Numbered from the stretch's first letter, positions 2,898-21,131 are shown. The stretch: DNA of 64,000 nucleotides from an uncultured Acidobacteriota bacterium (GCA_963836075.1 CAWIIB010000009.1:1888001-1952000); one strand, 5' to 3'. Numbers and translations: made by a program. Notes: generated by a model not told the origin, from the letters alone.

Positions 2898-2913
2898 AGC
2901 AAAGCCTGTGCCA
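2898..2913 (-). promoter_or_regulatory. sigma54 -24/-12 promoter for the leftward operon
   Basis: TGGCACAGGCTTTGCT on the minus strand, consensus TGGCAC-N5-TTGCW. Confidence 0.8.
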
Positions 2914-3009: not shown

Positions 3010-3110
3010 GTAGCAAAAGCGCAACTTCAAACTAAGAGAGCGTCGCATAACAGCTACGGTTCAATCGATTATTTGCTGACGCCCTCACACCAAAGAAGCG
3101 CGAGTGCAAC
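3010..3110. promoter_or_regulatory. Putative enhancer (UAS) sites GTnGCA-N4-YGCnAC
   Basis: GTAGCAAAAGCGCAAC (3010-3025), GTCGCATAACAGCTAC (3042-3057) and GAAGCGCGAGTGCAAC (3095-3110), between divergent sigma54 promoters. Confidence 0.55.
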
Positions 3111-3217: not shown

Positions 3218-3233
3218 TGGTACGGCCTTTGCG
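3218..3233 (+). promoter_or_regulatory. sigma54 promoter
   Basis: TGGTACGGCCTTTGCG, GG-N10-GC spacing. Confidence 0.7.
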
Positions 3234-3348: not shown

Positions 3349-3714
3349 ATGAATCAAAGGGATCAACTCGCAGGAGAGATCATGGTGATGATCAGCAGTG
3401 CAAGAGAACAGCGATTGAGACCACACGAGATACAGAAGGCGCTCTCAACGAAATTCTCTGTTCCCTTGTCCATGGTGAATGATGTTCTAAAGGAACTCGT
3501 GGCAAGAGAGAAGCTGGTCTTCACCTATCGCGACCCGTGCAATTACGTGGAAATTCCCTGCACTGAAGTCAACACAGGCGCCCGCCCCCTGAAAGTGATC
3601 GTTGACGTCGAAGGTGAACCGTGGATCTGTGATACCGACGTGGATCCGTCAAAGGAACTGGCCGATCAGGGTTGCTGGCGCTGTGGAGATCTGAGCTTCA
3701 CGAGAAACGACTAG
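3349..3714 (+). CDS. Hypothetical protein: winged-helix-like N-domain plus C-terminal Cys-rich domain (WxCD...QGCWRC)
   Basis: Helix-helix-hairpin pattern (LKELVAREKLVFTY). C-terminal ~45 aa homologous to 8997..9194. Confidence 0.7.
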   Translation: MNQRDQLAGEIMVMISSAREQRLRPHEIQKALSTKFSVPLSMVNDVLKELVAREKLVFTYRDPCNYVEIPCTEVNTGARPLKVIVDVEGEPWICDTDVDPSKELADQGCWRCGDLSFTRND

Positions 3715-3840
3715 CCAACAAATCTCATCGGGCCGAAAACATCTGAATACTGATGGTGTGAGACAGTTTGTTACGAGGGTCACTTTCCCGGAAAGGTTGT
3801 TTTCGGAATCACTGTTGAGCATTGATCTTAAGGTGTCGCA

Positions 3841-5526
3841 ATGGAAACAGCAGGCTCTTCCAAGGGTTGTGAGCTTGTGCTCTCTGGGCGGATCATCGCT
3901 CCTGGTATCGCGTTTGGTTACGCACATTTCGATGAAGTTCTACCGTCAGTCTCCTCCGCAGGCATCGGTCCGACTGAGGTAGATACGGAAATAGACCGGT
4001 TGAAGAGCGCCGTTTCGATCGCCCACCGAAACCTTGAAGTCCACATCCGTGAACTACACGACCCGTCAGAGGAGGATTTCCAGCAGATCCTCTCGTCGCA
4101 TCTCCTCATGCTGGATGACAGGGAATTCCTCTCCTCGGTTGTCAACCGCATCAAGTGTGACCTTGTGCCGGCAGAATTTGCAGTGCAGGAGGCGTTCAGC
4201 GTGGCGGCGGTTCGGCTGGGAGCCAGCAGGGACAGTTACCTCCGTGCTCGCGCAGAGGACATTCGCGATATCTGCCAGGTCATCCAGAGAACGCTCATGC
4301 TTGGGGAAAAGGCCTTCCAGACAAGCGCTCAGGATCGAACCGCGGCCATATGGATTGCTCCCCGCATTCATCCTTCCGTTGTTTTTCGCGCCAGGAGCTC
4401 TGGTGTCGCTGCGCTGATCACGTCCAGCACTGCCTACTCCTCTCACGGCGCCATTCTCCTGCGATCAGTCGGCGTTCCATCGCTGGGCAGCATCTCGTTT
4501 CCCGACGGTATCGTGAATGAAGGAACCCCGATTCTCGTCGATGCTGTCCATGGCAAAGTCCACCTTCGACCTGCTGCGGAAACGATAAAATCCACGATGA
4601 CCCTTGCAGCGGGGTTGGAGCAGTTAAACTCGAGCGAGTCGCTTTCCCCGCTTGATGCGCTCACGGCTGACGGACGGGCCATCAGACTCAGGGCCAATAT
4701 CGAGCACCCCTCCCAGACATCGCTCTGCTTTCATTACAGACTCAACGGTATCGGACTTTTTCGGACCGAGTTCATGGTACTGGCCAACGGCCGGATTCCG
4801 GATGAGGAAGAGCAATACCGAGCATACCGGGAACTGGTAGACCGTATGGGGGGGAAACCGATTGTCATCCGCACGTTTGATATTGGCGGCGATAAGGTTA
4901 CCGCCGACCTTCACCAGTGTTCGGGCTCGAATCCGGCCCTCGGTGTTCGCGGCCTTCGCCGACATCTTCTGCGAACTCCGCATGAACTCCACACCCAGAT
5001 GAGGGCGATTCTCCGCGCTGCCAGGGATGCTGACGTAGCGATCCTTTTTCCGATGGTCACCCATGCCGGCGATCTTGCCACCGCTAGGGGAATCCTGGAA
5101 AAGGTAAAGGCGGAACTCGAGCAGGAACGCTTTCCCTTCAACAATAACATCAGAATGGGCGCCATGATCGAAGTGCCCTCCGCTGCATTGGAACTGGGGG
5201 AAATCCTCGAACTTGCAGACTTCGTGAGCATCGGCACCAACGATCTCCTGCAGTATTTAACTGCAACGGACCGTGACAACCCCGAAGTGGAGGAGTACCA
5301 GAGCCTCACCACTTCAGGACTTCGCCCGCTGGTGAACCTGATGATGGATCAGGCACGGTCCATGGGGCGGGAACAGGATGTATCTGTTTGCGGCGAGATG
5401 GCCTCCGATCCAGAGGGCGCCAAATTTCTCGTGGAACTCGGAATTGAATCACTGAGCATCTCTCCAGGCGCGGCGCCGGCGGTGAGGAATGCCATCGGGA
5501 CGATCAATCCATTCATTGATATCTGA
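3841..5526 (+). CDS. ptsI: Phosphoenolpyruvate-protein phosphotransferase (PTS enzyme I-like)
   Basis: SSHGAIL phospho-His motif, GIGLFRTEF, RTFDIGGDK, NPALGVRG, SIGTNDL, CGEMA. Confidence 0.9.
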   Translation: METAGSSKGCELVLSGRIIAPGIAFGYAHFDEVLPSVSSAGIGPTEVDTEIDRLKSAVSIAHRNLEVHIRELHDPSEEDFQQILSSHLLMLDDREFLSSVVNRIKCDLVPAEFAVQEAFSVAAVRLGASRDSYLRARAEDIRDICQVIQRTLMLGEKAFQTSAQDRTAAIWIAPRIHPSVVFRARSSGVAALITSSTAYSSHGAILLRSVGVPSLGSISFPDGIVNEGTPILVDAVHGKVHLRPAAETIKSTMTLAAGLEQLNSSESLSPLDALTADGRAIRLRANIEHPSQTSLCFHYRLNGIGLFRTEFMVLANGRIPDEEEQYRAYRELVDRMGGKPIVIRTFDIGGDKVTADLHQCSGSNPALGVRGLRRHLLRTPHELHTQMRAILRAARDADVAILFPMVTHAGDLATARGILEKVKAELEQERFPFNNNIRMGAMIEVPSAALELGEILELADFVSIGTNDLLQYLTATDRDNPEVEEYQSLTTSGLRPLVNLMMDQARSMGREQDVSVCGEMASDPEGAKFLVELGIESLSISPGAAPAVRNAIGTINPFIDI

Positions 5527-5542
5527 GAACTGCGGTGACGAG

Positions 5543-6568
5543 ATGGTTGTTTGGAATGTCTTCAAGGAAGCGTTGACAATCACGGCCTTTGTTGCGGTGA
5601 TCATGATCGCCATCGAATACGTCAATATACGGACCCGCGGTCTGGTCATGCAGGCACTGGGTGATTCACTTCCGCGGCAATACTTACTGGCTGCAGCGCT
5701 TGGAGCAACGCCCGGCTGCCTGGGTGCTTTTGTCCTCGTTGCGCTCTTCACCCATCGGCGACTTTCGCCCGGTGCGCTTGCGGCAGGCATGATTGCCACC
5801 AGCGGCGACGAGATGTTTGTGATGCTCGCACTAATGCCGAAGACGGCACTCCTCATGACCGCCGGTCTGATGATCCTGGGAGTTGCTGCCGGGTGGATCT
5901 CTGACCGAATCTTGCGGTTGAAACCGACGTCGGCCTGCAATGGATGTGCAAGCTTTGCCGTTCACGAGGAGGAACACTGTCGCTGCTTTCCCAGAGGCCA
6001 GGTAAGAGAGTTATGGAATCCACCCAGTCCACATCGGGCGATCCTTGCCGTGGTGGTCGCCGTCATTCTTCTGTCCATCATGGCGGGAAAGATCGGCCCC
6101 CTGGGCTGGGACTGGAAACGCGTTACGCTGCTTTGTCTTACAGGATCTGTAGAATTTATCATTTGGACCGTTCCGGATCACTTTCTCGATGAGCACCTGT
6201 GGAATCATGTTTCACGAAAGCACGTACCTCAACTCTTCCTCTGGACGTTGGGGGCGATGGCCACCATCAGTCTTTTCGATTCATTTTTTGATCTGAGGTC
6301 GATGCTGGCGGATAACAGCTGGCTGGTCCTTTTGGCCGCGGCCATTGTCGGCATCATTCCCGAATCCGGACCCCACCTGCTGTTTGTCAATCTTTTTGTC
6401 CAGGGCATTGTTCCGTTCAGCGTGCTCGTGGCGAGTTCGGTTGTTCAGGACGGACACGGAATGCTTCCGCTGCTGGCCCATTCCCGAGGTGATTTTCTGC
6501 GAATCAAGGCAGTGAACCTGGTGTTCGGGCTGGGGGCGGGTGCCCTGCTCATGGCGGCAGGTTTCTGA
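5543..6568 (+). CDS. Putative manganese/metal transporter (ArsP_2/DUF2899-like)
   Basis: GATPGCLG, ATSGDE, GIIPESGPH and SSVVQDGHG motifs. Multiple TM helices with a Cys/His-rich loop. Confidence 0.8.
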   Translation: MVVWNVFKEALTITAFVAVIMIAIEYVNIRTRGLVMQALGDSLPRQYLLAAALGATPGCLGAFVLVALFTHRRLSPGALAAGMIATSGDEMFVMLALMPKTALLMTAGLMILGVAAGWISDRILRLKPTSACNGCASFAVHEEEHCRCFPRGQVRELWNPPSPHRAILAVVVAVILLSIMAGKIGPLGWDWKRVTLLCLTGSVEFIIWTVPDHFLDEHLWNHVSRKHVPQLFLWTLGAMATISLFDSFFDLRSMLADNSWLVLLAAAIVGIIPESGPHLLFVNLFVQGIVPFSVLVASSVVQDGHGMLPLLAHSRGDFLRIKAVNLVFGLGAGALLMAAGF

Positions 6569-6619
6569 CGCTGGCCGCTCAAGTCCATTGCCGGCAAGTT
6601 TAATCGTGAGGAGAGGATC

Positions 6620-8527
6620 ATGAAAGCCTTTGAGAGTATCCGACTCAATGCACTGACACTCCCGAATCGCCTGGTCATGGCCCCGGTGAAAACAGCGTTC
6701 GGAAGCAGCGAAGGGAAAGTGACCGATACGCTTTTGGCCTACTACTCGCGCCGCGCGAAAGGCGGTGTGGGAACGATCATTGTCGAGCCGCTTTATGTAG
6801 ATGGTGCGGGCAAGGAACATCCCAAGCAGCTTGGGATCGATGTCGGCAACCATCTTGACGGCCTCCATCGGCTCGTCTCCACAATCCACGCCGGTGGCGC
6901 TAGAGCCTTTGCCCATCTCAACCATGCCGGACGCGCCGCAAACCCGAAGGCCACCGGCCTCACTCCGGAGGCGCCATCGGAAATGGTTTGTCCCTCCACC
7001 GGGGTTGTGGCCCGGGAGATGGATGAAGCTCGGATTCAGGAGATTGTCCAGGCCTTTGTCCACGCTGCGTGGCGGGCGAAATGGGCGAAATTCGACGGAG
7101 TGGAACTTCAATGCGGGCTGGGCTACCTTGTGGCTCAATTTTATTCCCCAAAAACCAATCATCGCCAGGACGGATACGGTGGTAGCCGGGAGAGACGCGC
7201 GCGATTTGCTCAGGAGGTGGTCAAGGCCGTGCGTAAAACTCTTGGGCCGGACATGCCTCTCATCGCCCGTATCTCCGCAACGGAACAGGTGGATGGCGGG
7301 CTGGACCTGAAGGACGGTCAGGATCTGGCCCGGAGGCTGGTGAGCTGGGGAATCGACGCCCTGCACGTGGTAAGCGGTTCGGCCTGCGACACACCTCCCT
7401 GGTACTACCAGCACATGAGTCTGCCCGAGGGGAAGAACGAACTGTTTGCCGCCGGAATCCGAAAGGGGCTCGATATCCCGGTCATCGTTGCCGGGCGTCT
7501 CGGGGATCCGGATCGAATTGCCGGCATCCTTGCCGACGGGCAGGCGGACATGGTGGCCTTGGGCCGGCCCCTGGTTGCCGACCCTGATCTGCCCCGGAAA
7601 ATGCGTGAGGGCCGCACGGATAAAATCATGCTGTGCGGGGGCTGCCTGCAGGGCTGCCTCGTTTCCGTCAAAGCGGGTGAGGGTCTCAGCTGCATCGTAA
7701 ACCCGGAAGTGGGCCACGAAGCGGAAACAGAGCCGGCCGCGAAAACCCCACGCCACGTGGTGGTGATCGGCGGCGGGCCGGCGGGTCTGATGGCTGCTAT
7801 CGTTGCCCGCAGGCGCGGTCATTCCGTCACCCTTCTTGAAAAAGGGGAACTGGGAGGGCAATTCGCGCTCTCCTATCTCGCACCGGGCAAGGAGGCCATG
7901 CAGCGGCCCTTGTCTTCACTGCTCCATTGGGCGCGCCGATCCGGGGCTGACATTCGCACGGGAATGGCGGCCGACGTTGATGCAATTATCGACCTGGCCC
8001 CCGGCGTGGTGGTGTTGGCAACCGGAGCGAAACCGATCATGCCGGTCATTCCGGGTCTCGTATCAGCTGTTACCGGTGAGGAGGCTCTCAACGGGAACAC
8101 GGAGATCGGCGATAGAGTCCTCGTACTTGGCGGCGGACTGGTGGGTATCGAGGTTGCCGAATTCCTCGCCAAACGCAACAGAAAAGTAGTTGTCGTCGAA
8201 ATGCTGGACGATATCGCCCGCGACATGGAAATGATCACACGCAAAATGACGATCAAACGTCTTCAGACCCTGGATGTTGAGATTCATACAAACACGACAC
8301 TTCTGCGGATGGAGGGAAACAGGGCCATTGTGCGGGATGAAACGGGCATCCATGATTCTGGATCGTATGACACGGTTGTGGTGGCGGTGGGGACGCACCC
8401 GGAGGGTTCACTCTCGCAGCCCCTTGCCGAACGGGGGATCGAGGTCCACAAAATCGGTGATGCCTCGGAACTGGGGCAGGTGATTGGCGCCGTTCGTTCG
8501 GGATGGGAAACGGGGCGGCGAATCTAA
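6620..8527 (+). CDS. NADH:flavin oxidoreductase (OYE/2,4-dienoyl-CoA reductase-like, FMN, 4Fe-4S, FAD)
   Basis: LPNRLVMAP, NHRQDGYGGS, CGGCLQGC-x11-C cluster motif, GGGPAG and GGGLVG Rossmann motifs. Confidence 0.9.
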   Translation: MKAFESIRLNALTLPNRLVMAPVKTAFGSSEGKVTDTLLAYYSRRAKGGVGTIIVEPLYVDGAGKEHPKQLGIDVGNHLDGLHRLVSTIHAGGARAFAHLNHAGRAANPKATGLTPEAPSEMVCPSTGVVAREMDEARIQEIVQAFVHAAWRAKWAKFDGVELQCGLGYLVAQFYSPKTNHRQDGYGGSRERRARFAQEVVKAVRKTLGPDMPLIARISATEQVDGGLDLKDGQDLARRLVSWGIDALHVVSGSACDTPPWYYQHMSLPEGKNELFAAGIRKGLDIPVIVAGRLGDPDRIAGILADGQADMVALGRPLVADPDLPRKMREGRTDKIMLCGGCLQGCLVSVKAGEGLSCIVNPEVGHEAETEPAAKTPRHVVVIGGGPAGLMAAIVARRRGHSVTLLEKGELGGQFALSYLAPGKEAMQRPLSSLLHWARRSGADIRTGMAADVDAIIDLAPGVVVLATGAKPIMPVIPGLVSAVTGEEALNGNTEIGDRVLVLGGGLVGIEVAEFLAKRNRKVVVVEMLDDIARDMEMITRKMTIKRLQTLDVEIHTNTTLLRMEGNRAIVRDETGIHDSGSYDTVVVAVGTHPEGSLSQPLAERGIEVHKIGDASELGQVIGAVRSGWETGRRI

Positions 8528-8554
8528 CTTTTTACATGCAGATTGGAGGTCGCC

Positions 8555-8866
8555 ATGCTCGACATGATCGTAGATTGCAATTCAATGGAATGGCAGGACG
8601 CCAGCGACATGTATCCGCAGGGTACGAAAATTAAAGTGCTTCGCGACGACCAGGGAGGAAGAACCATCGTCCTTCAGCTGCCACTAGGTTTCAGAATGGA
8701 AGGCCACAGCCATACCAAGAATGAGCAGCACTATGTTTTGAGCGGGCAGTATGAATTGGAGGGTAGAGCCTGCGGCGAGGGGACCTACCAGCTTATTCAC
8801 TCTGAAATGAGCCATGGTCCATTTACGTCGGAGGCCGGAGCAGTGGTTCTGGTCATCTGGAACTGA
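8555..8866 (+). CDS. Cupin domain protein (ChrR-like)
   Basis: HSH-x3-EQHYVLSG...HGPF cupin motifs. GGAGG RBS. Confidence 0.85.
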   Translation: MLDMIVDCNSMEWQDASDMYPQGTKIKVLRDDQGGRTIVLQLPLGFRMEGHSHTKNEQHYVLSGQYELEGRACGEGTYQLIHSEMSHGPFTSEAGAVVLVIWN

Positions 8867-8919
8867 TGGCAAAGAGGGCAGTACTGAGCAATTCCCGCAG
8901 CGGGCCTGTCGGCTGGTCG

Positions 8920-8935
8920 TGGCATGAGTTGTGCT
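8920..8935 (+). promoter_or_regulatory. sigma54 promoter
   Basis: TGGCATGAGTTGTGCT, GG-N10-GC, ~60 nt upstream of 8997. Confidence 0.55.
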
Positions 8936-8996
8936 TAAGCAATAGGGTGTACTGAGCGTTCATTCATGTCACCCTGAAACAGGGAAGGAGAATGTC

Positions 8997-9194
8997 ATGT
9001 CTGATAAAATCAATCCGGACGAAAGAGAAGAGATGACCACCGACACTCACAAACCTGCTCGCCCACTGAAGTACTTCAAGGACAATGATGGTTACGGCTG
9101 GCTTTGCGACAAGGATATCGATCCCGGCAAAGATTTCCGGACGCAGGGTTGCTGGCGGTGCGACCAGATGGCGTTCCCCACTGGAGGGAGATAG
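8997..9194 (+). CDS. Small Cys-rich hypothetical protein (RPLK..WLCD..QGCWRC)
   Basis: AAGGAG RBS. Paralogous to the C-domain of 3349..3714. Confidence 0.75.
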   Translation: MSDKINPDEREEMTTDTHKPARPLKYFKDNDGYGWLCDKDIDPGKDFRTQGCWRCDQMAFPTGGR

Positions 9195-9580
9195 TCGCAG
9201 GTATACCAGGCCCTCTTGTCCTTGATATGGCCGGGAGCATCCTGCTTGACGCAAAACCTGGTCTGTCCGCCAGCAGCATTCGCCGGCGGACAGGCCGGCA
9301 TGATAGTGATCGCCGCTACTCTCTGAACACGACCGAGCCTGGTCTGATCATCGTGCTCCCTTCCTCTATCGCCACCTTGTAAGCGTTGGACATTCCCATG
9401 GATAAGACCTTCATTTAAACTGCAGGGGTGGACAGGATCGGCGATAGAGCTGGTCACGGCTGTTTGGATCCCGGATTCATCTTGACCCGAGGATTGCGAA
9501 AAGGCTACTCTAGCGTGATGGGACATTGCAATAGTGCGACTATCGACAGGTTGCCCTTCCAAACCGGAGCGTTGGGTTAA

Positions 9581-10957
9581 ATGACCAGTGAGCAGACCCC
9601 GTCCTTCGAAATATCGTCTCCCGATTTGCTGGAGGCGGTTCTCTCGAGCCTCAACGATGGAGTGTTCTGTGTCGACCAGAACTGGAAGGTCATTTTATTC
9701 AATCAAGCCGCCCAGATGATCACCGGGATTTCCAGGGAGCAAGCCATCGGAAAGCAGTGCTGTGAGGTCCTGCGCAGCAACATCTGCGAGAATGCCTGCG
9801 CGCTCCGCTATACCATGGAAACCGGCAGACCTGTTGTCAACCTTGCCATCACCATTACCAATACCGAGGAAGCGAAAATCCCGATCAGCATTTCAACGAG
9901 CCTGCTGAAGAACAGCAGGGGTGAGGTCGTCGGTGGGGTGGAAACATTTCGTGACCTTCGCCTGGTGGAGCAACTGAGAAGGGAACTCGAGGCTCGTCAC
10001 ACATTTCAGGATATCATCAGCAAAAGCCCAAAGATGCGGCACCTGTTCGACATGATTCCCGTCGTTGCCGATAGTGACAGCACTGTATTGATCACTGGAG
10101 AAAGTGGAACCGGCAAAGGTCTGGTGGCAAAAGCTATTCACTTTACAAGCCCTAGACAGGACGGGCCTCTCATCACCGTCAATTGCTCTGCCATGCCCGA
10201 AACGCTCCTGGAATCGGAACTGTTTGGCTACAAGAAGGGCGCTTTCACCGATGCCCGACGGGACAAGCCGGGCAGATTTGCCGCTGCCGAGGGCGGAACT
10301 CTTTTTCTCGATGAAATCGGCGATATCCCGCCGTCGATTCAGATGAAATTGCTGAGAGTCATCCAGGAAAAGGTTTACGAACCGCTGGGGGGAACAAAGA
10401 GCGTGAGCGCCGATGTTCGCATCCTGTCAGCAACGAACAAAAATCTCGAGCAGTTGGTGAAGGAAGAGCGATTCAGGATGGATCTCTACTATCGAATTAA
10501 CGTGATCCGCCTGGAGTTGCCGCCTCTTTCGGAGCGGAGTGAGGACGTGCCCTTGCTGGTGAACCATTTCATCGCGCGCTTCTCCTCAATCAAGGGGAAG
10601 GATATCGAAGGCATTGTGCCGGACGCGATGAATATCCTTATGCGACATGAATACCCGGGGAATGTGAGGGAACTGGAAAACATCGTCGAACATGCATTCG
10701 TGTTGTGCCCGGGCGGGATGATCCGGACCAACCATCTGCCGGAATATCTCCAGCCCAAAATCGTCCCCCCCGAAAGTGGCGCCCTTCAATTGCTGCAGCA
10801 GTATGAGAAGGAACTGATCCTGGAAGTGTTGCGAAGAAATCACTGGAACAGGGATCGAGCCGCCAGGGAGCTGGGAATCCACAAAACCACGCTGTTCAGA
10901 AAGATTCAGAAGTTGGGTCTCCAATTGCCGAAACAGGACGGAAGATCGAAAAAATAG
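9581..10957 (+). CDS. sigma54-dependent enhancer-binding protein with PAS domain
   Basis: PAS domain, GESGTGK Walker A, GAFTDA, LDEIGD, YPGNVREL, C-terminal Fis HTH. Confidence 0.95.
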   Translation: MTSEQTPSFEISSPDLLEAVLSSLNDGVFCVDQNWKVILFNQAAQMITGISREQAIGKQCCEVLRSNICENACALRYTMETGRPVVNLAITITNTEEAKIPISISTSLLKNSRGEVVGGVETFRDLRLVEQLRRELEARHTFQDIISKSPKMRHLFDMIPVVADSDSTVLITGESGTGKGLVAKAIHFTSPRQDGPLITVNCSAMPETLLESELFGYKKGAFTDARRDKPGRFAAAEGGTLFLDEIGDIPPSIQMKLLRVIQEKVYEPLGGTKSVSADVRILSATNKNLEQLVKEERFRMDLYYRINVIRLELPPLSERSEDVPLLVNHFIARFSSIKGKDIEGIVPDAMNILMRHEYPGNVRELENIVEHAFVLCPGGMIRTNHLPEYLQPKIVPPESGALQLLQQYEKELILEVLRRNHWNRDRAARELGIHKTTLFRKIQKLGLQLPKQDGRSKK

Positions 10958-10967
10958 CGTTTTGGCT

Positions 10968-11013
10968 CTATTGCTATTCCAAATCGCAATAGCCCAAGTC
11001 GCAATAGCGCTAC
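10968..11013. promoter_or_regulatory. Putative UAS (repeated TCGCAATAGC; GTCGCAATAGCGCTAC)
   Basis: Same motif as 3010-3110 and 9525-9540, ~105 bp upstream of the sigma54 promoter at 11117. Confidence 0.55.
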
Positions 11014-11116
11014 GCTCAGGACCCTTCAGGCCACCGCCATTCGACCCCCACCACTAGTTCCTGCGTATCCAGTTTGATTACAACAAGTACAAATGTTGTC
11101 CGGTCTGTGCTTTTAC

Positions 11117-11132
11117 TGGTACGGTCCTTGCT
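11117..11132 (+). promoter_or_regulatory. sigma54 promoter
   Basis: TGGTACGGTCCTTGCT. Confidence 0.75.
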
Positions 11133-11228
11133 TTACTAGTTGGATACCACCTTGGTAGACCCCATGGGACGAGAGATTGATGGTGTGCCCCTCGTCTTTC
11201 GGGCGCAAGGGGTAGATTGGAGGTTGTC

Positions 11229-11585
11229 ATGAGGTACGAAGCCAGCAAACTCCAGGGGGTAGTTGTCTTCAAGCTTTTCGGATACCTCAAGGGTTGCCGG
11301 GACAGTTACCATTTTCTGAACAGGGTCCGGGAACTACTGGAAAACCAGAACCGGGGGAAGGTCGTCATCGATCTGGGATGCTTGGAAAAAATCGACAGTG
11401 CGGGTGTCGGTGTTCTGGCATCCATTGTCACGGCAGCGGAGCTTTCGGGGGCATCCCTTGTCTTTTCAAACATCACCAAGAGAGTCGAGAAACCGATTGT
11501 GATCGCCAGGTTGATGCGTGTGCTCAAAGTGGTGCCGACTCTTGAAGACGCAGTAACGGACCTGGCGGGCCAAGCAGTATTGTAG
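11229..11585 (+). CDS. STAS domain anti-sigma factor antagonist
   Basis: VVIDLGCLEKIDSAGVGVL with conserved phospho-Ser context. GGAGG RBS. Confidence 0.85.
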   Translation: MRYEASKLQGVVVFKLFGYLKGCRDSYHFLNRVRELLENQNRGKVVIDLGCLEKIDSAGVGVLASIVTAAELSGASLVFSNITKRVEKPIVIARLMRVLKVVPTLEDAVTDLAGQAVL

Positions 11586-11641
11586 TGACCTCCCCCTTTT
11601 CCCGGTGGAGCGTCAATTAACCGAAATAGGAGGAGCCGCAG

Positions 11642-12064
11642 ATGAACACGAATCTCATCAGGATGATAGAAACAAATCGAGATCTGCTCAGAACCAGGGT
11701 GTCAACCCAGGTTCGAATCCCAAGTGCACCTCACTATCAAGATCGGGTAAAGCAGCTCCTCGGAGTCCGGGCCGAAAGGCTCATCCAGGAATACCTGGAA
11801 TCAGTACGCACAGAATCCACGGGATTCATCGACTATGTGCGCAGTTTGGCGGAAGAGAGGATCCAGGAAGGATTCCGCTTGAGTGAGATCCAGATGGCCC
11901 TGAATATCTTTGGTGAGGAAATATGGCAGCTCTGCACCGAGTCGGAACCTGACAAGTACAAACAACTGAGGTACCTGAGCCAGATGTTTATCACAATCGG
12001 GGCGGCCAAGGACCAGGTGGCACAAGTGTACCTGCGCCAGAGGGAAGAGGAGTTGTTTAAGTGA
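11642..12064 (+). CDS. RsbRD N-terminal-domain-like helical protein (paralog 1)
   Basis: ERIQEGFRLSEIQMALNIFGEEIW motif. AGGAGG RBS. Confidence 0.7.
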   Translation: MNTNLIRMIETNRDLLRTRVSTQVRIPSAPHYQDRVKQLLGVRAERLIQEYLESVRTESTGFIDYVRSLAEERIQEGFRLSEIQMALNIFGEEIWQLCTESEPDKYKQLRYLSQMFITIGAAKDQVAQVYLRQREEELFK

Positions 12065-12287: not shown

Positions 12288-12303
12288 TGGCACTCAAGTT
12301 GCT
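12288..12303 (+). promoter_or_regulatory. sigma54 promoter
   Basis: TGGCACTCAAGTTGCT, full consensus. Confidence 0.8.
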
Positions 12304-12466
12304 TTGCTGTATAGCCGGTGAACGGGCATCGTTTGCAAATGGCTTCGATCCCCTTGCGGAGGTCCGTAAGCCAATATGAAATTCGAGGAATCACAAGTTA
12401 TCGGTGTTGGAGGATCCGTCAATGAACACGAACCGTGATCAAAAGCATTCTGGGGGGCAGAGTCAA

Positions 12467-12848
12467 ATGTTATCCATCAAGAAGATATTGTTCCCTACGG
12501 ACTTTTCCCGTTGCTCTGAACAGGCTTTTTCACATGCACTCTATCTTTCGAAGCGATATGGTGCGGAACTGCACTTACTCCATGCCATCGTGATGTATGA
12601 ACATGATTTTAGAGGATGTCGGTGAGACAAAACGTAAAGAAGTGGTAAGTGTTGTCGACGGCCATGCAGCCAGTGAAATCGTGAAATATGCCAAAGACCA
12701 CGAAATGGACATGATTGTCATTGCCACCCATGGTTTGACCGGGCTTCAACACATGTTGATCGGCAGCGTAACTGAAAAGGTGGTTCGTATGGCACATTGT
12801 CCGGTGTTCGTCGTCAAGGCATATGGCAAATCTCTGGTGGGTGACTGA
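12467..12848 (+). pseudogene. Universal stress protein, frameshifted or internally deleted
   Basis: N-part KKILFPTDFS...LHLLHAI and C-part DMIVIATHGLTG...GSVTEKVVRMAHCPV lie in different frames, switching near 12600-12625. Confidence 0.8.
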
Positions 12849-12912: not shown

Positions 12913-13248
12913 ATGAACACCCAATTTTATTCGCTCTTGAAAGAAGAACAAGATGATTTGGTATTGGAAGCAGTCAATCGGCTCAAAACCTCGACAGCCA
13001 CTCACTATAGCCACGCTGACGTCAATAATCTTCGTTCGAGGTTTAATAAACTGATTCAAGAATTTATTCTGTCCGCAATGGGGGAGCAAGAGGGTTTTGC
13101 CGAGTATTTACAAAAGATCAGCAACGACAGAATCAGAGAGGGATACGACTTCAGTGAAGTGCAAGATGCCCTGAACACAATCGAGAGCCTGGTTTGGAGG
13201 CTTTGCAGGGAATCCCGCAGGGAATCAGCACCCGCTTTTCACTCCTGA
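12913..13248 (+). pseudogene. RsbRD-N-like protein (paralog 2), C-terminally truncated
   Basis: TATHY and DRIREGYDFSEVQDALNTIESLVWRLC. Homology ends near 13214, so the last helix found in the paralogs is missing. Confidence 0.65.
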
Positions 13249-13348
13249 TCAGGAGGACGCTCTTTTCCGGATAGTGCCTCTTGCTAGTCAGTGCCGCGGT
13301 CAACCCTGCGGCACTGCCCCCGGCTACTACAACGTCATATGTGTCCAT
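13205..13348 (-). pseudogene. FAD-dependent pyridine nucleotide-disulfide oxidoreductase (NADH oxidase-like), N-terminal remnant
   Basis: MDTYDVVVAGGSAAGLTAA...LIPCGIP (FAD motif and redox Cys) after a GGAGG RBS, truncated after ~47 codons. Confidence 0.8.
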
Positions 13349-13362
13349 TGTTCTTCCTCCCT

Positions 13363-14484
13363 TCACCCGATGAGCGAAAGCAGTACACCTGCCGCCACGG
13401 CGGTGCCGATCACCCCGGCCACATTGGGGCCCATGGCGTGCATCAAGAGGTAGTTGTCCGGGTCTTCCTCGCTGGCCACGTTGTGTACCACTCTGGCGGC
13501 CATGGGAACCGCCGAAACCCCGGCGGCCCCGATCAGGGGGTTGACCGGGCTTCCGGGCAGCCGCGACATCAGCTTGCCCAGCAGCAGCCCGCCGGCGGTG
13601 GAGATGGCGAAGGCCGCGCAGCCGAGGACCAGAATTTTCAGCGTCTGCGGCTGGAGGAACTGTTCGCCGTTCATAGTCACGCCGACGCAGAGTCCCAGGA
13701 GGATGGTCACCAGGTTGATCAGCTCGTTCTGAGCTGAGCGGGTCAGCCGCTCGGTCACCCCGCATTCACGCAGCAGGTTGCCAAACATCAGCAGACCCAC
13801 CAGGGTGATGGAAGCGGGCACCAGCAGGGCGCAGATGATGGTGACCGTCACCGGGAAAACGATCCGCAGCCAGCGCGGCACGTTGACGTTGTTCTCCATC
13901 CGGATCGCCCGCTCCTTCCGCGTGGTCAGCAGGCGCATGATCGGCGGCTGGATAATCGGCACCAGCGCCATGTAAGAATAGGCCGATACCGCGATGACCC
14001 CCAGCAGATGCGGGGCCAGCTTGGCCGAGAGGTAGATCGAAGTGGGGCCGTCAGCGCCGCCGATGATGGCGATGGCAGCTGCTTCCTCGGGGGTGAACCC
14101 AAGAAGCCCGGCGGCAACCAGGGTGATCACCACGCCCAGCTGGGCCGCGGCGCCGAGGAGCAGGGTCTTGGGGTTGGAGAGCAGTGGCCCGAAATCGGTC
14201 AGCGCCCCCAGGCCGAGAAAGATCAGCGGCGGGAAGATCTCCAGCCGCACACCGTGGAACAGGTAGTAAAAGAGACCGCCGATCTCCTCCCCCACCGGGG
14301 CGGCCATCAGCCCGCCCAGGGGCAGGTTGGCCAGGATGGCGCCAAAGCCGATGGGCACCAGCAGGAGGGGCTCGAATCGTTTGTGGATGGCCAGCCAGAG
14401 CAGAACCACCCCCACGCCGATCATTGCCGCTTCACGCCAGACCAGGTGGTAGAGGCCGGTATTGCTGAGCAGTTCGGTCAGCAT
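13363..14484 (-). CDS. mmdB: Na+-translocating decarboxylase beta subunit
   Basis: FEPLLLVPIGFG, AIIGGADGPT, AYSYMALVPIIQPP, GVSAVPMAAR, HAMGPNVAG. Confidence 0.93.
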   Translation of the reverse strand: MLTELLSNTGLYHLVWREAAMIGVGVVLLWLAIHKRFEPLLLVPIGFGAILANLPLGGLMAAPVGEEIGGLFYYLFHGVRLEIFPPLIFLGLGALTDFGPLLSNPKTLLLGAAAQLGVVITLVAAGLLGFTPEEAAAIAIIGGADGPTSIYLSAKLAPHLLGVIAVSAYSYMALVPIIQPPIMRLLTTRKERAIRMENNVNVPRWLRIVFPVTVTIICALLVPASITLVGLLMFGNLLRECGVTERLTRSAQNELINLVTILLGLCVGVTMNGEQFLQPQTLKILVLGCAAFAISTAGGLLLGKLMSRLPGSPVNPLIGAAGVSAVPMAARVVHNVASEEDPDNYLLMHAMGPNVAGVIGTAVAAGVLLSLIG

Positions 14485-14485
14485 G

Positions 14486-14917
14486 TCACACCTGGTTTTC
14501 CTGTGGCTGGTAGCGCACCAGCACGTCGCCAGCCTGCACCGGTTCGCCAACGACCACGCACTGTTCGGCGATTACCCCCTTGCGTGGGGCGTAGATGTAG
14601 GTGTCCATCTTCATCGCGTCCAGCAGCACCAGGGGAGCCCGGTCTTCCACCGTGGCCCCGGCGTCGGCGAAATACTTCTGCACGGTGCCGGCAATGGGGG
14701 CTTTCACTGCGTCGGGGTCGGCGGCGGCAGCGCCGCTCGACCTGACCCTGGCCGGCTGTGGCGCCGCCGCCGTCGCCGGAGGCCGGCCAGCCAGCGGGGT
14801 GCCGGTGCGGGAGAAGGAGTTCATCCCGGCCCCCGGGACGTGCCGCTCATCGTCCTCCAGCACCTCCACCTCAACGTCATATCGATTTCCGTTGACCGTA
14901 ATACGGAGCTTCTTCAT
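14486..14917 (-). CDS. mmdC: Biotin carboxyl carrier subunit of decarboxylase
   Basis: ITVNGNRYDVEVE N-terminus, Ala/Pro linker, DAMKM biotinylation motif. Confidence 0.88.
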   Translation of the reverse strand: MKKLRITVNGNRYDVEVEVLEDDERHVPGAGMNSFSRTGTPLAGRPPATAAAPQPARVRSSGAAAADPDAVKAPIAGTVQKYFADAGATVEDRAPLVLLDAMKMDTYIYAPRKGVIAEQCVVVGEPVQAGDVLVRYQPQENQV

Positions 14918-15231
14918 CGTTTGGGTTCCACCCTGTGTGAATGCATGATGTCCACCCGGCCGGCGCGGGACCAGAGTTCGTCCTCGGTGTCATGGTGCAG
15001 GTGAATCCGGCGAACGCGCGCCCTGGGCCCCAGCACGGTGTGCGCCGCTGCCGCCAGCACAACGGCGAGTTCCTCATCGGGACCATCGCCTGCCGTTTTC
15101 CCGGCCGGAACCCGCCGTCCTTCAACGGCCAGCGCCAGAGCTCTGAGGCCATAGAGCACCAGGCTGATCAGGGCCAGCGAGGTGGACACCATCAGAAAGG
15201 TCATCAGCGCACTGTTGAGAAAGATGTTCAT
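14914..15231 (-). CDS. mmdD: Decarboxylase delta subunit (OadG-like membrane anchor)
   Basis: N-terminal TM helix, EELAVVLAAAA, WSRAGR. Operon position fits. Confidence 0.75.
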   Translation of the reverse strand: MNIFLNSALMTFLMVSTSLALISLVLYGLRALALAVEGRRVPAGKTAGDGPDEELAVVLAAAAHTVLGPRARVRRIHLHHDTEDELWSRAGRVDIMHSHRVEPKR

Positions 15232-15235
15232 GGTT

Positions 15236-16777
15236 TCACAGCGCCATGTTTCCGTGTTTTTTCTCCGGCCGGTGGTCCCGCTTCATCCGCCAGGTGCCCA
15301 GGGCCTCGATCAGCAGGCGCCTGGTCCAGGAGGGCCGGACCACGTCGTCGATGTGCAGCATCTCGGCCGCCTTGTAGGGGTTGGCGTGAACCCGCCGGTA
15401 CTCGGCGGCCTTTTCGCGAAGCAGCGCCTGGGGAGTGTCAGCCTGCTCCAGTTCCTTGCGGTGCAGAATCCTCGCCGCCCCCTCCGGCCCCATGACCGCC
15501 AGTTCCGCCGTTGGCCAGGCCAGCACATAGTCGGCGCCCATGTCGCGGGAACACATGGCGAGGTAAGCGCCACCGTAGGCCTTGCGCATGATCACCGTCA
15601 TCTTCGGGACGGTGGAGGCAGAGTAGGTGAAGAGCATCTTCGCACCGTGGCGGATGATGCCGCCCTGCTCCTGGGCCACGCCGGGGAGAAACCCGGGTAC
15701 GTCCACCAGGGTGACCAGGGGGATGTTGAACACGTTGCAGGTGCGGATGAAGCGGGACGCCTTGTCCGAAGCGTCGATGTCGAGGGCGCCGGCCAGGCTG
15801 CAGGGCTGGTTGGCCACGATCCCCACCACCATCCCCCCCATCCGGGCCAGGCCGATGACGATGTTCGGCGCGAAGGCCTCCTGGATCTCGAGAAAGTCGG
15901 CCCCGTCCACCAGCTTGGAGATCACCTCCCTGACGTCGTAGGCCTGGCGCGGGTCATCGGGGATCAGCCGGTCCAGTTCCTCATCATCTGTGACCTGGTC
16001 CTCGAAGGGCCGAGGCGGGGCGGATTCCAGGTTGTTCAGCGGCAGGAAGGAGAGGAGCCGCCGGGCGATCCTCAGCGCATCCTCGTCGTCAGAGGCAACG
16101 AAGTGGATATTCCCCGAGATGGCGGCGTGGGCCCGGGCCCCGCCCAGTTCTTCCTCGCCGATCACCTCCCCGGTGGCCGCCTTGATCACCTGCGGCCCGG
16201 TGATGAACATCCGGGCGGTGCCATCGACCATGATGATGAAGTCGGTCATCGCCGGCGAGTAAGCAGCGCCGCCAGCGCAGGGCCCGGCGATCACCGAGAT
16301 CTGCGGCACCACACCGGAGAGCAGGGTGTTGTGGTAGAAGATCTTCCCGTAGCCGGAGAGACCTTCCACCCCCTCCTGGATGCGGGCGCCGCCCGAGTCG
16401 TTGATGCCCAGAACCGGGACGCCGCACTTCAGCGCCTGCTGCATGATGTCCACGATCTTGGCCGCATGTCGTTCACCAACGGCGCCGCCGCCCACGGTGA
16501 AGTCCTGGGAGAAGGCGAAGACCGGGCGGTTGTCCACCTCGCCCTTGCCGGTGACCACCCCGTCGGCGGGCAGGTCTTTCCCGGCCAGGTCGGGGTGGCG
16601 ATGGCGGGCCCAGAGCCCCAGCTCGAGAAAGCTGTCCGGGTCAAAGAGCAGGTCCAGCCGTTCGCGAGCGCCGAGCTTTCCCGCCTGGTGCTGTTTCTCC
16701 AGCCGGTCCGCCCCGCCGCCGGCCTCGATGGCGGAACGCTTCCGGTCAAGATCTTCAAATCGATTCTGTTCATTCAT
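15236..16777 (-). CDS. mmdA: Acyl-CoA carboxyltransferase (methylmalonyl-CoA decarboxylase alpha-like)
   Basis: QDFTVGGG, DSGGARIQEG, GPCAGGAAYSPA, DVPGFLPG, RKAYGGAY, KKHGN. Confidence 0.9.
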   Translation of the reverse strand: MNEQNRFEDLDRKRSAIEAGGGADRLEKQHQAGKLGARERLDLLFDPDSFLELGLWARHRHPDLAGKDLPADGVVTGKGEVDNRPVFAFSQDFTVGGGAVGERHAAKIVDIMQQALKCGVPVLGINDSGGARIQEGVEGLSGYGKIFYHNTLLSGVVPQISVIAGPCAGGAAYSPAMTDFIIMVDGTARMFITGPQVIKAATGEVIGEEELGGARAHAAISGNIHFVASDDEDALRIARRLLSFLPLNNLESAPPRPFEDQVTDDEELDRLIPDDPRQAYDVREVISKLVDGADFLEIQEAFAPNIVIGLARMGGMVVGIVANQPCSLAGALDIDASDKASRFIRTCNVFNIPLVTLVDVPGFLPGVAQEQGGIIRHGAKMLFTYSASTVPKMTVIMRKAYGGAYLAMCSRDMGADYVLAWPTAELAVMGPEGAARILHRKELEQADTPQALLREKAAEYRRVHANPYKAAEMLHIDDVVRPSWTRRLLIEALGTWRMKRDHRPEKKHGNMAL

Positions 16778-16788
16778 TGTTTGTACCG

Positions 16789-17304
16789 TCAGTCCACCGG
16801 AAGGAAGGAGGACTCCGCACCACCCGAGAAATCTTCCAGCTGGTCGAAGAACACCTTGGCGATGGACAGCACGCTGTCCTTCTGTTTGAGATACTCCCGG
16901 GCCAACTGGTCCTTGGCCGTGCCGAAGATGCCGGTCACCAGGCTGAGGTCCTTGAGCAACTGGTCCTTGTCCTCCACCTTGTGGGCGCAAATCTTCCAGG
17001 CATACTCCTCGAAGATATTGAGCGCCATCTGGATCTCATCCAGACCCAACCCTTCGCCGATCCTGGCCTGGGCGATGCCGATGATGTAGTCCACAAAGCA
17101 GCGGGGCGATCCTTCGACGGCCTCGAGGAACTTGTCCACCAGCGTCCCGCACCGTACGCGCAGAGCATCCACGTCCGCATTCCTGTAATGCGTTGCGGTG
17201 GAATTGCGGATCTGGGTCAGCACGGCCTCTCTCAATACATCCCGCTCGGCAGCCATCAGGTCATGGAGCCTTTCGTAAGTTATGTCGTTGATTTCATCGT
17301 TCAT
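16789..17304 (-). CDS. RsbRD-N-like helical protein (paralog 3), first gene of the decarboxylase operon
   Basis: TATHYRNADV, ARIGEGLGLDEIQMALNIFEEYAW, GTAKDQLAREYL. Confidence 0.72.
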   Translation of the reverse strand: MNDEINDITYERLHDLMAAERDVLREAVLTQIRNSTATHYRNADVDALRVRCGTLVDKFLEAVEGSPRCFVDYIIGIAQARIGEGLGLDEIQMALNIFEEYAWKICAHKVEDKDQLLKDLSLVTGIFGTAKDQLAREYLKQKDSVLSIAKVFFDQLEDFSGGAESSFLPVD

Positions 17305-17402
17305 TTTGATCACCCGTTTACGGCTCCGCACCCCGGAGGGGCTGGAACGTCCTGTTATTCGCCGCGGGCGGCATGCCCGGGCCGATCCTCGGCCGCTTTA
17401 AG

Positions 17403-17418
17403 AGCAAGGCCTGTGCCA
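17403..17418 (-). promoter_or_regulatory. sigma54 promoter of the decarboxylase operon
   Basis: TGGCACAGGCCTTGCT on the minus strand. UAS-like GTTTCAAAATGCAAT at 17514-17528. Confidence 0.8.
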
Positions 17419-17542
17419 TCTCACAGCATGCAATACAACCAATTCAATCTATTGCGGTTAAATGGAGAAGTGTGTTCGGACGAGGGAAAGGGCCGACCGG
17501 AATCGGTAGTAGCGTTTCAAAATGCAATGGCCGGGGAGCGCC

Positions 17543-19156
17543 TCAATCTTTCAGCTTGCGCCACAGAGTGGAGGGGCTGATGCCCAGGATGCGGGAGGCG
17601 GCCTGGCGGTTGCCCCCGGTGGATTCCAGAACCGCCCGGATGTAGTCCATCTCCAACGCGGCAAGGGTGCGGGTGGGAGAGAGGGACGGAGTCAGGACAC
17701 CGGCCGCGTGGTGCCGGATCTCCGGCGGCAGTGTATCCAGGCGGACGATCCCGTCGGTGCTCACCACTGCCGCCCGCTCGATGGCGTTCTCCAGTTCGCG
17801 GACATTCCCCGGCCAGGGGTAGCTCAGCAGCACGTCGATGCATGTGGCGTCCAGGTGCAGCTGGGGCAGGTTGAGCCCCTTGGCCAGCCGGGCGGCGATA
17901 TGGCGGGCCAGCGGGAGGATATCCTCCTGCCGCCGGCGCAGGGGCGGCACCTCGATCTCAACCACGCGCAGCCGGTAGAGCAGGTCCTCTCTGAACCGGC
18001 CTTCCCGCACCTCCTCGTCCAGGTGACGGTTGGTGGCGGTGATAATACGAACATCGACCTTCCGCGGGGTGCTCTCTCCCACGCGGAGCACTTCCCGCTC
18101 CTGGAGCACACGAAGGATCTTGACCTGCATGGCCGGGCTCACATCGCCGATCTCATCGAGAAAGACGGTTCCGCCGCCGGCCGCCTCGAAAAGCCCCGCC
18201 CGGTCGCGGATGGCGCCGGTAAACGACCCCGCCTTGTGCCCGAACAGCTCGCTCTCCAGCAGCGTTTCGGGCAATGCACCACAGTTGATTGCCACGAACG
18301 GTCCCGACTCACGGTGCGAGGCGTCGTGGATGTGGCGGGCCAGGACCTCCTTGCCCACTCCGGTCTCCCCGGTGACCATCACCGACGAGTCGAACTTGGC
18401 CACCCGCTCGGCCATTTCCATGACCCGCAGCAAGACCTGGCTCTTCGCCTCGGCCAGGAAGGGGCTGCCCTTCTTTCTCAGCGATTCCAGACGGTCACGA
18501 TGCCGGGCCAGCTCCCGCGATTTCTTCTTCAGTTCCTGGGTCAGGAGCGCCACTTTCCCCACGATGTCCTCAGCGCTAAAGTAGGGGAGGTACGGCTCGA
18601 TCCGCTCGCCCCAGTTCTCCCGGGTCTTTCCCATCGCGCAGCAGGACAACCCGCCGGACACCTGGCACCCTGTCTCGAGGAAGTAGACGTTGGTGTTGAG
18701 GCAGAAGGAAACATAGCCGCTCATATAGCCCACCAGCTTCCAGCATTCGGGGGTCTGGGAAGGACCGAGCACGGTCCGATGCTCCAGCGCCTCCACCGAG
18801 TCCTGCCAGGAAACTTCCATCTCCACCAGCCGGTTCGACTGGTCCAGCTCGAGTTTCAGGACACTGGTTTCAGCGATTCCCTCAATGGACTGCATCCGGC
18901 AACCGGCCTTGAGCAGTTCAGCGATGTCTTTCCACTGAAACACTCGCTTCATCGCCGCGGCATCGGCCTGGCCCCAGAAAAAACCGAACCGGGTGAACAC
19001 CCGCCGGGCGTTCTCCGGCCCCAGCATTTTCACCAGATCCTGCCGGAACTGGCCGAAGGCGTCGCTGGAGTGGAGAACCAGGCGTCGTCCATGCAGGCTG
19101 AGGTTGCCACTGGTGAACTGGACCAGTTCGTTGAGTTCAAGATCTTCAGCTTTCAT
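17543..19156 (-). CDS. XylR/DmpR-type sigma54 activator (XylR_N, V4R, AAA+, HTH)
   Basis: LSLHGRRLVLH, V4R Cys residues (ECWKL, ETGC...CC), GETGVGKE, GSFTGA, WPGNVREL, HTH. Confidence 0.93.
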   Translation of the reverse strand: MKAEDLELNELVQFTSGNLSLHGRRLVLHSSDAFGQFRQDLVKMLGPENARRVFTRFGFFWGQADAAAMKRVFQWKDIAELLKAGCRMQSIEGIAETSVLKLELDQSNRLVEMEVSWQDSVEALEHRTVLGPSQTPECWKLVGYMSGYVSFCLNTNVYFLETGCQVSGGLSCCAMGKTRENWGERIEPYLPYFSAEDIVGKVALLTQELKKKSRELARHRDRLESLRKKGSPFLAEAKSQVLLRVMEMAERVAKFDSSVMVTGETGVGKEVLARHIHDASHRESGPFVAINCGALPETLLESELFGHKAGSFTGAIRDRAGLFEAAGGGTVFLDEIGDVSPAMQVKILRVLQEREVLRVGESTPRKVDVRIITATNRHLDEEVREGRFREDLLYRLRVVEIEVPPLRRRQEDILPLARHIAARLAKGLNLPQLHLDATCIDVLLSYPWPGNVRELENAIERAAVVSTDGIVRLDTLPPEIRHHAAGVLTPSLSPTRTLAALEMDYIRAVLESTGGNRQAASRILGISPSTLWRKLKD

Positions 19157-19335: not shown

Positions 19336-19351
19336 TGGCATCTGATTTGCT
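19336..19351 (+). promoter_or_regulatory. sigma54 promoter
   Basis: TGGCATCTGATTTGCT. Confidence 0.75.
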
Positions 19352-19429
19352 TTTGACAAAGGTGCCCCCTTGATTGTCGGGGGCATCGGCAGGGGGGCGA
19401 ACGATGGGAACCTGATTGATGAGGATCGG

Positions 19430-20982: not shown

Positions 20983-21131
20983 TTCCCCCGACGCCAGAGC
21001 TTTTTGCCCGGGGGGGTGCAGTCCCCGCCAAATTTCTGTAAAATAATGGGCCCTGTGGAAGCCGGCCGCCGGCGGCGCGGCTTGTGGTGATGTACCGGAA
21101 AACCGTTGACCGTAACCAGGAGTGACGGACA

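Follow-up and report, generated by a model that had tools for sequence, protein, structure and literature searches.

Enzyme I (EI) paralogues with a specificity of their own define separate branches of phosphotransferase system (PTS) signaling, and EI-Ntr is the model case. We analyzed a 64,000-nucleotide (nt) stretch of DNA from an uncultured Acidobacteriota bacterium (GCA_963836075.1, CAWIIB010000009.1:1888001-1952000), called the window throughout, in which positions 3349 to 12064 encode an EI together with two small Cys-domain proteins, a putative metal exporter, a flavoenzyme, a sigma54 activator, a STAS protein, and an RsbRD_N-like protein. A reading made from the sequence alone (the sequence-only reading) had proposed that this EI phosphorylates a noncanonical acceptor encoded in the same locus and so links phosphoenolpyruvate (PEP) status to a metal or redox response. 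On balance, we lean toward a different reading, a redox-controlled sigma54 regulon that includes a clade-specific EI using an HPr-type carrier encoded elsewhere. On present evidence, this would be a new branch of a known enzyme and not a new mechanism; an EI branch of uncultured anaerobes placed under an Fe-S redox sensor and bearing conserved His and Cys residues of its own would extend PTS signaling to redox control.

The canonical EI, PtsI, is represented by the E. coli structures 2HWG, 2KX9, and 3EZA, and the window EI shares its three domains, phospho-His, PEP site, HPr-docking core, and fold. It differs from PtsI in belonging to a separate clade, in an altered His loop, in its own conserved His and Cys residues, and in having no adjacent ptsH; it also scores 303 bits against the NF008382 equivalog cutoff of 824, a cutoff that ordinary EIs of other phyla may miss as well. 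EI-Ntr (PtsP), of the permease-free regulatory PTS, offers a precedent for an EI paralogue that is unlinked to its carrier and serves regulation (e.g., PMC2937029). Unlike PtsP, which has ∼750 residues, the window EI has 561 and lacks an N-terminal GAF domain; it scores 267 bits against a PRK11061 cutoff of 583 and does not group with long PtsP-type sequences in our trees.

A regulatory precedent is OrpR (DVU2106) of Desulfovibrio vulgaris, which has an Fe-S site formed by C52, E54, C61, and C65. Its [4Fe-4S] cluster is redox sensitive, and at low redox potential the protein turns on sigma54 operons that are arranged divergently (PMC8359166). An activator gene that lies among the genes under study, and that the sequence-only reading left unnamed, has the same architecture and the exact Cys spacing and, like OrpR, is accompanied by divergent sigma54 promoters and palindromic sites. 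Its predicted targets differ from the OrpR regulon in comprising EI, the exporter, an old yellow enzyme (OYE) family protein, STAS, and a radical SAM gene rather than Orp3, Orp4, Orp5, Orp8, and Orp9 (PMC6345978).

The enzyme I clade and its docking surface

Open reading frame (ORF) calls and Pfam and NCBIfam profile scans recovered every gene that the sequence-only reading had named (Table 1). The N-terminal helical, mobile His, and PEP-binding domains of EI lie in one chain that scores above the TIGR01417 cutoff (362.7 versus 341.7 bits) and is ∼28 to 30% identical to solved full-length EIs. Its structural model (predicted local distance difference test [pLDDT] score, 90.4) has phosphorylated EI, 2HWG, as the top match. 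All nine catalytic positions are present (H202, R308, R344, R370, E444, N467, D468, R478, and C517), and we take their roles to be those of the E. coli equivalents; the role of E. coli Cys502 is reportedly the subject of one published study. The same nine are complete in 110 of 120 clade members. The EI had been called intact, and its phospho-His and PEP-site residues are indeed in place, but its phospho-His loop is noncanonical, having lost the Gly five residues before the phospho-His. That Gly occurs in 3 of the 120 clade members, compared with 71 of 75 EIs from GTDB and 125 of 133 other ordinary EIs.

Table 1. Coordinates of features in the window, counted from its first nucleotide
Feature	Position	Strand	Basis
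sigma54 -24/-12 box of the divergent operon	2899..2913	-	box scan
Three imperfect 16-bp palindromes (3010, 3042, 3095), candidate activator sites between two divergent sigma54 boxes	3010..3110	.	
sigma54 -24/-12 box ahead of the EI operon	3218..3232	+	box scan
121-aa winged-helix protein with C-terminal Cys domain, probable metal-binding regulator	3349..3714	+	50 homologues, fold model
PTS enzyme I, 561 aa, distinct clade, phospho-site His202	3841..5526	+	PF05524, PF00391, PF02896; TIGR01417
ArsP_2-family putative metal/arsenic exporter	5543..6568	+	PF11449 E=8.6e-33; NF037962 above cutoff
Three-domain FMN/[4Fe-4S]/FAD OYE-family oxidoreductase without the classic His/Asn pair	6620..8527	+	profile scans, motif inspection
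ChrR-like cupin (Cupin_7)	8555..8866	+	Pfam
Variant sigma54 box ahead of the 65-aa gene	8920..8935	+	
65-aa stand-alone Cys-domain protein (His18 and three Cys)	8997..9194	+	family alignments
Further palindrome of this type, 41 bp ahead of the activator start; may serve autoregulation	9525..9540	.	
PAS-AAA-HTH sigma54 activator, probable Fe-S redox sensor	9581..10957	+	Pfam; C-x-E-x6-C-x3-C, residues 60-73
Best-matching palindrome, 119 bp ahead of the box at 11117	10998..11013	.	
sigma54 box of the STAS unit	11117..11131	+	box scan
Single-domain STAS anti-sigma-antagonist-like protein, Ser57 in D-S-A-G	11229..11585	+	PF01740
Stand-alone RsbRD_N-like helical protein, one of three window paralogues	11642..12064	+	paralogue similarity
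Right border of the lower-GC block, 10-bp direct repeat	13205..13227	.	two truncated genes meet

The clade set consists of the best 120 of 4,076 EI hits among 8,000 scored. It was compared with the 133 nearest ordinary representatives and with 75 EIs from among the 80 matches listed in a GTDB scan with two motifs common to all EIs (5 shorter than 520 aa were dropped), a set that serves as outgroup and control only. In a tree with the 75 GTDB EIs, all 120 best hits fell into one clade (support, 1.0; stem, 0.68). When the 133 representatives were added and every second clade hit was used, all 70 motif-bearing sequences stayed together on a stem of 0.53, a length surpassed by 3 of the 276 internal branches. 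The suggestion that this EI is unusual was borne out by its placement in a clade of its own in both trees. The clade is small (17 among the best 150 representatives at 50% identity), and its three hits with an assigned organism belong to Acidobacteriota, Spirochaetia, and Thermodesulfobacteriota. The listed GTDB EIs are 30 to 37% identical to the window EI, and none of the 80 falls in the clade; a plasmid search returned ordinary EIs only, the best at 34%. No clade member exceeds 618 aa, and a Rosetta-stone search found no extra domain fused to a clade EI, with EI forms longer than 982 aa covered by one search only. Titles and abstract openings, with mostly open-access coverage, held no matching description of the clade or of the gene set. 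The window EI belongs to a real, apparently undescribed clade that is distinct and thinly sampled.

Clade-only conserved residues are His68, His73, Glu139, Cys360, Gly362, Arg374, His375, and Glu382. Leaving Gly362 aside, these occur in the clade at 114 of 119 (His68), 116 of 119 (His73), 119 of 120 (Glu139 and His375), 97 of 120 (Cys360), and 120 of 120 sequences (Arg374 and Glu382), while GTDB EIs carry them in 0 to 3 of 73 to 75 sequences at each position. The first three lie in the docking domain and the remaining four in the PEP domain, where the stretch from residue 355 to 390 is diagnostic of the clade.

The polar contacts of the E. coli EIN-HPr complex are Glu67, Glu68, Glu74, Asp82, Glu84, Tyr122, Arg126, and Asp129 (PMC3724859). 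By alignment to these, the window EI retains seven of the eight; the equivalent of Glu74 is gone. Asp93, Tyr133, Arg137, and Asp140, the equivalents of Asp82, Tyr122, Arg126, and Asp129, are conserved in 119, 118, 118, and 113 of 120 clade members, respectively. Because seven of the eight HPr contacts are kept, an HPr-fold partner encoded elsewhere is our best reading of the acceptor. We also looked for an overall shift in the charge of the docking domain and found none; the net charge of the alpha-domain (-6.7) is like that in ordinary EIs (-6.9 and -5.6).

As had been noted, the window encodes neither HPr nor EII. A hidden Markov model (HMM) built from 35 HPr seeds gave a single match, with an E value of 0.89, on a lipoamide dehydrogenase frame, and no EII was found among the 22 and 45 window proteins scanned with Pfam. 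Among the 80 ordinary EI loci listed, 45 have an HPr domain, and 44 of these 45 matches are either part of an EI fusion or no more than ∼220 bp away from the EI frame. Among the 42 listed loci with full 10-kb flanks, 19 have no HPr within 10 kb, and 8 of the 19 are long, PtsP-sized frames. Since nearly half of ordinary loci also lack a nearby HPr, and since the first 13.2 kb of the window may be out of its native context, the lack of HPr here means little.

The sigma54 activator and its probable target units

The activator has the PAS-AAA-HTH order, the GAFTxA loop, and three cysteines in the PAS domain at intervals of 9 and 4 residues, the first of them followed two positions later by an acidic residue (D/E). 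It is probably an OrpR-type Fe-S redox sensor. A plasmid search for it returned generic activators only. The metal or redox response that had been proposed for the locus is plausible on its redox side, given an OrpR-type Fe-S activator in the cluster; phosphorylation of a local acceptor is not supported.

A "motif A" left undefined in the sequence-only reading was taken to be the sigma54 -24/-12 box, which is present at 3218 and 11117. The window has eight copies of the box compared with 2.33 expected, and none of 100 shuffles reached eight. Sigma70 promoter and terminator scans gave chance levels only. From the 3349 gene through the RsbRD_N-like gene, the intergenic gaps are 126, 16, 51, 27, 130, 386, 271, and 56 bp; the 386-bp gap precedes the activator gene, and the 271-bp gap precedes the STAS/RsbRD_N-like pair. 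For the stretch from EI to the cupin, gaps of 16 to 51 bp behind one box suggest one operon, but the whole span is not a single operon. Given the boxes at 3218, 8920 (a variant), and 11117 and the gap sizes, positions 3349 to 12064 are predicted to comprise at least three sigma54 units, with the STAS and RsbRD_N-like genes outside the EI unit.

A motif-free test for shared palindromes, the candidate binding sites, comprised seven region tests with 200 shuffles each. The divergent region and the region before the 11117 box shared a palindrome at p=0.005 (the two-site score was attained in 1 of 200 shuffles), as did the activator-upstream region and the region before 11117 at p=0.01, and none of four control regions was significant. 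It is likely, judging from these sites and boxes, that the activator at 9581 to 10957 controls the sigma54 units of the block. Transcribed away from EI (minus strand, 1 to 2802) is the divergent operon, which encodes a radical SAM protein, a hotdog thioesterase, an RssA-like patatin, and an ORF running off the window edge; the aminotransferase label of this last ORF is a reading of its sequence and does not come from a profile scan.

In the mechanism that we propose, the OrpR-like activator would drive the sigma54 units of the block, giving expression at low redox potential. EI would autophosphorylate on His202 from PEP and transfer this phosphoryl group to a carrier of the HPr fold whose gene lies elsewhere, providing a regulatory, nontransport PTS input. 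Clade-specific His68, His73, Glu139, Cys360, Arg374, His375, and Glu382 may tune the choice of partner or add metal or redox control. The small Cys-domain proteins would be metal-binding modules and STAS an ordinary Ser-phosphorylated antagonist, all of them coregulated neighbors and not EI substrates.

Candidate acceptors and alternative readings

The locus encodes two copies (3568 to 3711 and 8997 to 9194) of a Cys/His domain of ∼45 residues that belongs to no Pfam family and recurs on several regulators. Elsewhere, it occurs in fusions with DUF2173, cNMP-binding, and winged-helix proteins, and because of the first two fusions we regard it as a mobile module that is probably not tied to EI. 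In the 65-aa protein, His18 sits in an H-x-x-A-R-P stretch, and 10 of 11 non-winged-helix forms of the domain have a His there (12 of 62 sequences lacking the full domain pattern were dropped from this comparison). The His goes with a third Cys, occurring in 24 of 34 sequences that have the third Cys and in 1 of 16 that do not. Of the 39 winged-helix forms, none has both the His and Cys72, 15 have the His only, 18 have Cys72 only, and 6 have neither. Because the His and Cys72 exclude each other and the His tracks the third Cys, His18 appears to behave like a metal ligand that is swappable with Cys72, and the small Cys-domain proteins are predicted to bind metal. The 121-aa copy in the window has no such His. 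The domain does not match the HPr HMM and is unlike HPr in its size, in the beta strand that follows A-R-P in the model, and in a His placed two residues farther from A-R-P; in HPr, an A-R-P-type stretch starts a helix.

The 121-aa protein was modeled with a pLDDT score of 86.7, and fold searches covering residues 1 to 73, not the Cys domain, gave winged-helix matches with Z scores of up to 10.8. GntR HMMs match 20 of 51 members of its family. PF08679 (DsrD) weakly matches 5 of the 51 (best E value, 0.0085), and DsrD is one among many winged-helix fold matches to the model. The family has no conserved His, the most that can be named being His26 in 20 of 51 members.

Several observations weigh against the reading that we favor. 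In the EI clade, the docking-helix acids at positions 85, 130, and 136 are neutral or basic: Asp or Glu is found there in 8, 9, and 1 of 117 clade members, compared with 55, 48, and 56 of 75 GTDB EIs. With three docking acids changed and the phospho-His-loop Gly lost, the partner may differ from a standard HPr, although we think that the three changes suggest altered specificity and not a new type of partner. No HPr partner is seen in the window, and the rest of the genome lies outside the data. The palindrome in the window differs from the OrpR site given in PMC8359166. Genes of the orp3, orp4, orp5, orp8, and orp9 types were not recognized among the Pfam-scanned window proteins, and the divergent operon extends past the left end of the window. 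With a matrix built from the 3010, 3042, and 3095 sites, the 10998 site ranks second and the 9525 site fifth of 63,984 positions, but this test is partly circular in that the sites were chosen after all five had been seen. In the motif-free test, the comparison of the divergent and activator-upstream regions gave p=0.34, and at two mismatches the palindrome is not enriched across the window (21 copies versus 30.6 expected). The His/Cys72 pattern follows subfamilies, so a p-value for it overstates independence.

What speaks for an acceptor encoded in the block other than HPr, with His18 (65-aa protein) and His31 (RsbRD_N-like protein) as the best candidates, is that the EI clade is distinct and unfused and altered in its phospho-His loop and docking rim, that the H-x-x-A-R-P stretch, with its recurrent His before the Cys domain, loosely resembles the HPr site, and that His31 is kept in all three RsbRD_N-like paralogues. 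Gene linkage can be cited on both sides. By a crude proxy based on contig sizes per cluster, in which genes may lie at contig ends, an EI hit at 76% identity (P0002) and a winged-helix hit at 70% (P0129) have longest contigs of the same size, 602,524; no other coincidence turned up between the 120 EI hits and the small-protein hits, which number 60. Of these winged-helix/Cys hits, 12 are on contigs of at least 10 kb, and 1 of the 12 matches an EI. Four other winged-helix homologues, P0123, P0126, P0127, and P0130 (68 to 84% identity, contigs of 6.9 to 18 kb), have no matching EI. Taken together, the proxy suggests linkage in a close relative and loose linkage beyond it. The core of HPr contacts is nevertheless retained in EI, A-R-P runs into a beta strand and not a helix, the His tracks a third Cys and is missing from the 121-aa copy, and the genes for the His18 and His31 proteins both lie outside the EI transcription unit. 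No convincing acceptor site was found in any neighboring protein of the block, His18 being the best His. Predictions of the complex of EI with the winged-helix/Cys protein scored 0.19 and 0.00 against a mark of 0.32, which is no answer, and were counted neither way. With the docking surface kept, the alpha-domain acidic, no conserved winged-helix His, and STAS in another unit, we find the idea of a noncanonical local acceptor unsupported and consider it quite improbable. The same grade applies to its fullest form, in which the clade would be a dedicated histidine kinase driven by PEP, passing over HPr to phosphorylate His18-type Cys/His domains under the Fe-S activator. If true, such a kinase would tie metal handling in uncultured anaerobes to the PEP level and the redox state, and its acceptor would stand out as a rare departure from the specificity of EI.

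A distinctly unlikely alternative is that EI is a dead-end PEP:pyruvate sensor whose phosphorylation state, possibly gated by Cys360 or by a metal site of His68, His73, and Glu139, would control a partner by binding, with no phosphotransfer onward. It would account for conserved noncatalytic residues peculiar to the clade and for a metal exporter and Cys-domain proteins that are cotranscribed, but Arg137 and the rest of the docking core are still constrained; the E. coli equivalent, Arg126, has reportedly been tied to phosphoryl transfer in one published study. It is unlikely, too, that the association is incidental and that EI is the ordinary or spare EI of the lineage, caught without functional tie in a mobile or misjoined, partly decaying block of accessory genes of an anaerobe. 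A GC break, two genes truncated at a direct repeat, a broken universal stress protein gene, the four winged-helix homologues that share no contig size with a listed EI, and the spread of the named clade hits over three phyla all fit that view. The genes within 3349 to 12064 are intact, however, the close spacing of the genes between EI and the cupin, all behind a single sigma54 box, suggests an operon, and the long stem and clade-wide conservation of noncatalytic residues argue for a specialized role. Atlas searches gave only leads below 0.9.

Neighboring genes and the border of the block

The OYE had been described as an atypical flavoenzyme. It lacks the classic His/Asn pair, but this is not unprecedented, as its closest solved structure, 6QKG (2-naphthoyl-CoA reductase, NCR), carries a similar substitution. 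It shares the FMN barrel, the CxxCxxxC(x11)C motif, and the FAD/NAD domains with the three-domain OYEs 6QKG, BaiCD, and FadH and falls under every NCBIfam equivalog cutoff shown (best, 457 versus 793 bits). The histidines of the cupin would fit a cupin metal site. At the 80 listed ordinary EI loci, no homologue of the winged-helix, ArsP, cupin, 65-aa Cys, PAS, STAS, or RsbRD_N-like gene was found; the OYE was matched at 8, at one of them strongly.

STAS scores 47.2 bits against TIGR00377, just below the cutoff of 53.45, and has the domain and Ser motif of the partner-switching proteins RsbV and SpoIIAA; Ser57 is presumably the residue targeted by ATP-dependent kinases. Unlike in partner-switching modules, no linked GHKL kinase or PP2C phosphatase was recognized in the window, and the absence of an RsbW/T-type kinase and of a SpoIIE/PP2C phosphatase that had been remarked on holds among the Pfam-scanned proteins. 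Two ordinary histidine kinases lie at 41185 to 43200 and 45396 to 46226.

The RsbRD-N label is weak for the protein at 11642 to 12064 and reaches it only through a paralogue. The protein itself has no Pfam match at an E value of 0.05 or less, PF14361 included, and matches Rsbr_N at 0.059; the paralogue at 12913 to 13248, 31% identical to it, matches RsbRD_N with an E value of 7e-4, below the cutoff. The paralogues, the third being at 16789 to 17304, are 31 to 41% identical to the first, each lies behind a sigma54 box, and all three share a His-Tyr pair and a W-x-C motif. A plasmid search found nothing for this protein or the 65-aa protein. The missing stressosome is not strange, because RsbRD_N-type genes that stand alone, with no stressosome, are already known under the name dsrT (PMC6018805). 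DsrT is thus a comparable stand-alone RsbRD_N protein, but the window has no recognized dsrMKJOP genes. The third paralogue belongs to a minus-strand stretch (13363 to 19156) with a XylR-type sigma54 activator and a sigma54 box at 17404, where it heads an operon for a Na+-pumping acyl-CoA decarboxylase, with genes for a carboxyltransferase, a small subunit, a biotin carrier, and OAD-beta.

The first 13.2 kb of the window has a GC content of 0.55 compared with 0.63 in the rest, with a changepoint near 13.3 kb; third-position GC is 0.61 to 0.78 in the block and 0.74 to 0.92 beyond it (one out-of-frame value was disregarded), and tetranucleotide distance is 0.16 inside the block and 0.25 to 0.44 to other window blocks. 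At the border, the truncated RsbRD_N-like gene at 12913 to 13248 (plus strand) meets a truncated flavin oxidoreductase gene (minus strand, start at 13348). The border at 13205 to 13350 may be an island edge, a deletion, or an assembly join, and since the block may be an island or a join, the remaining 51 kb may not represent its natural surroundings. Just inside the border, at 12288 to 12848, a sigma54 box precedes a universal stress protein gene that is split into two frames with the middle missing and is a probable pseudogene.

Beyond the border, a plus-strand stretch (19336 to 26564) encodes, downstream of a sigma54 box, an enoyl-CoA-hydratase-like protein, FolE2, and the E1, E2, and E3 components of a 2-oxoglutarate dehydrogenase. 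Pieces resembling lipoamide dehydrogenase and E2 acyltransferase genes (28273 to 28413 and 32991 to 33340) stand apart from the intact copies and may be remnants or assembly debris. Radical SAM/SPASM genes, one apparently split (47715 to 47918 and 47981 to 48826), and a B12-binding radical SAM gene lie at 46229 to 48826 and 53660 to 55042. On the plus strand at 57290 to 60107, a cytochrome c with a MetA-type barrel domain is followed by a multiheme cytochrome.

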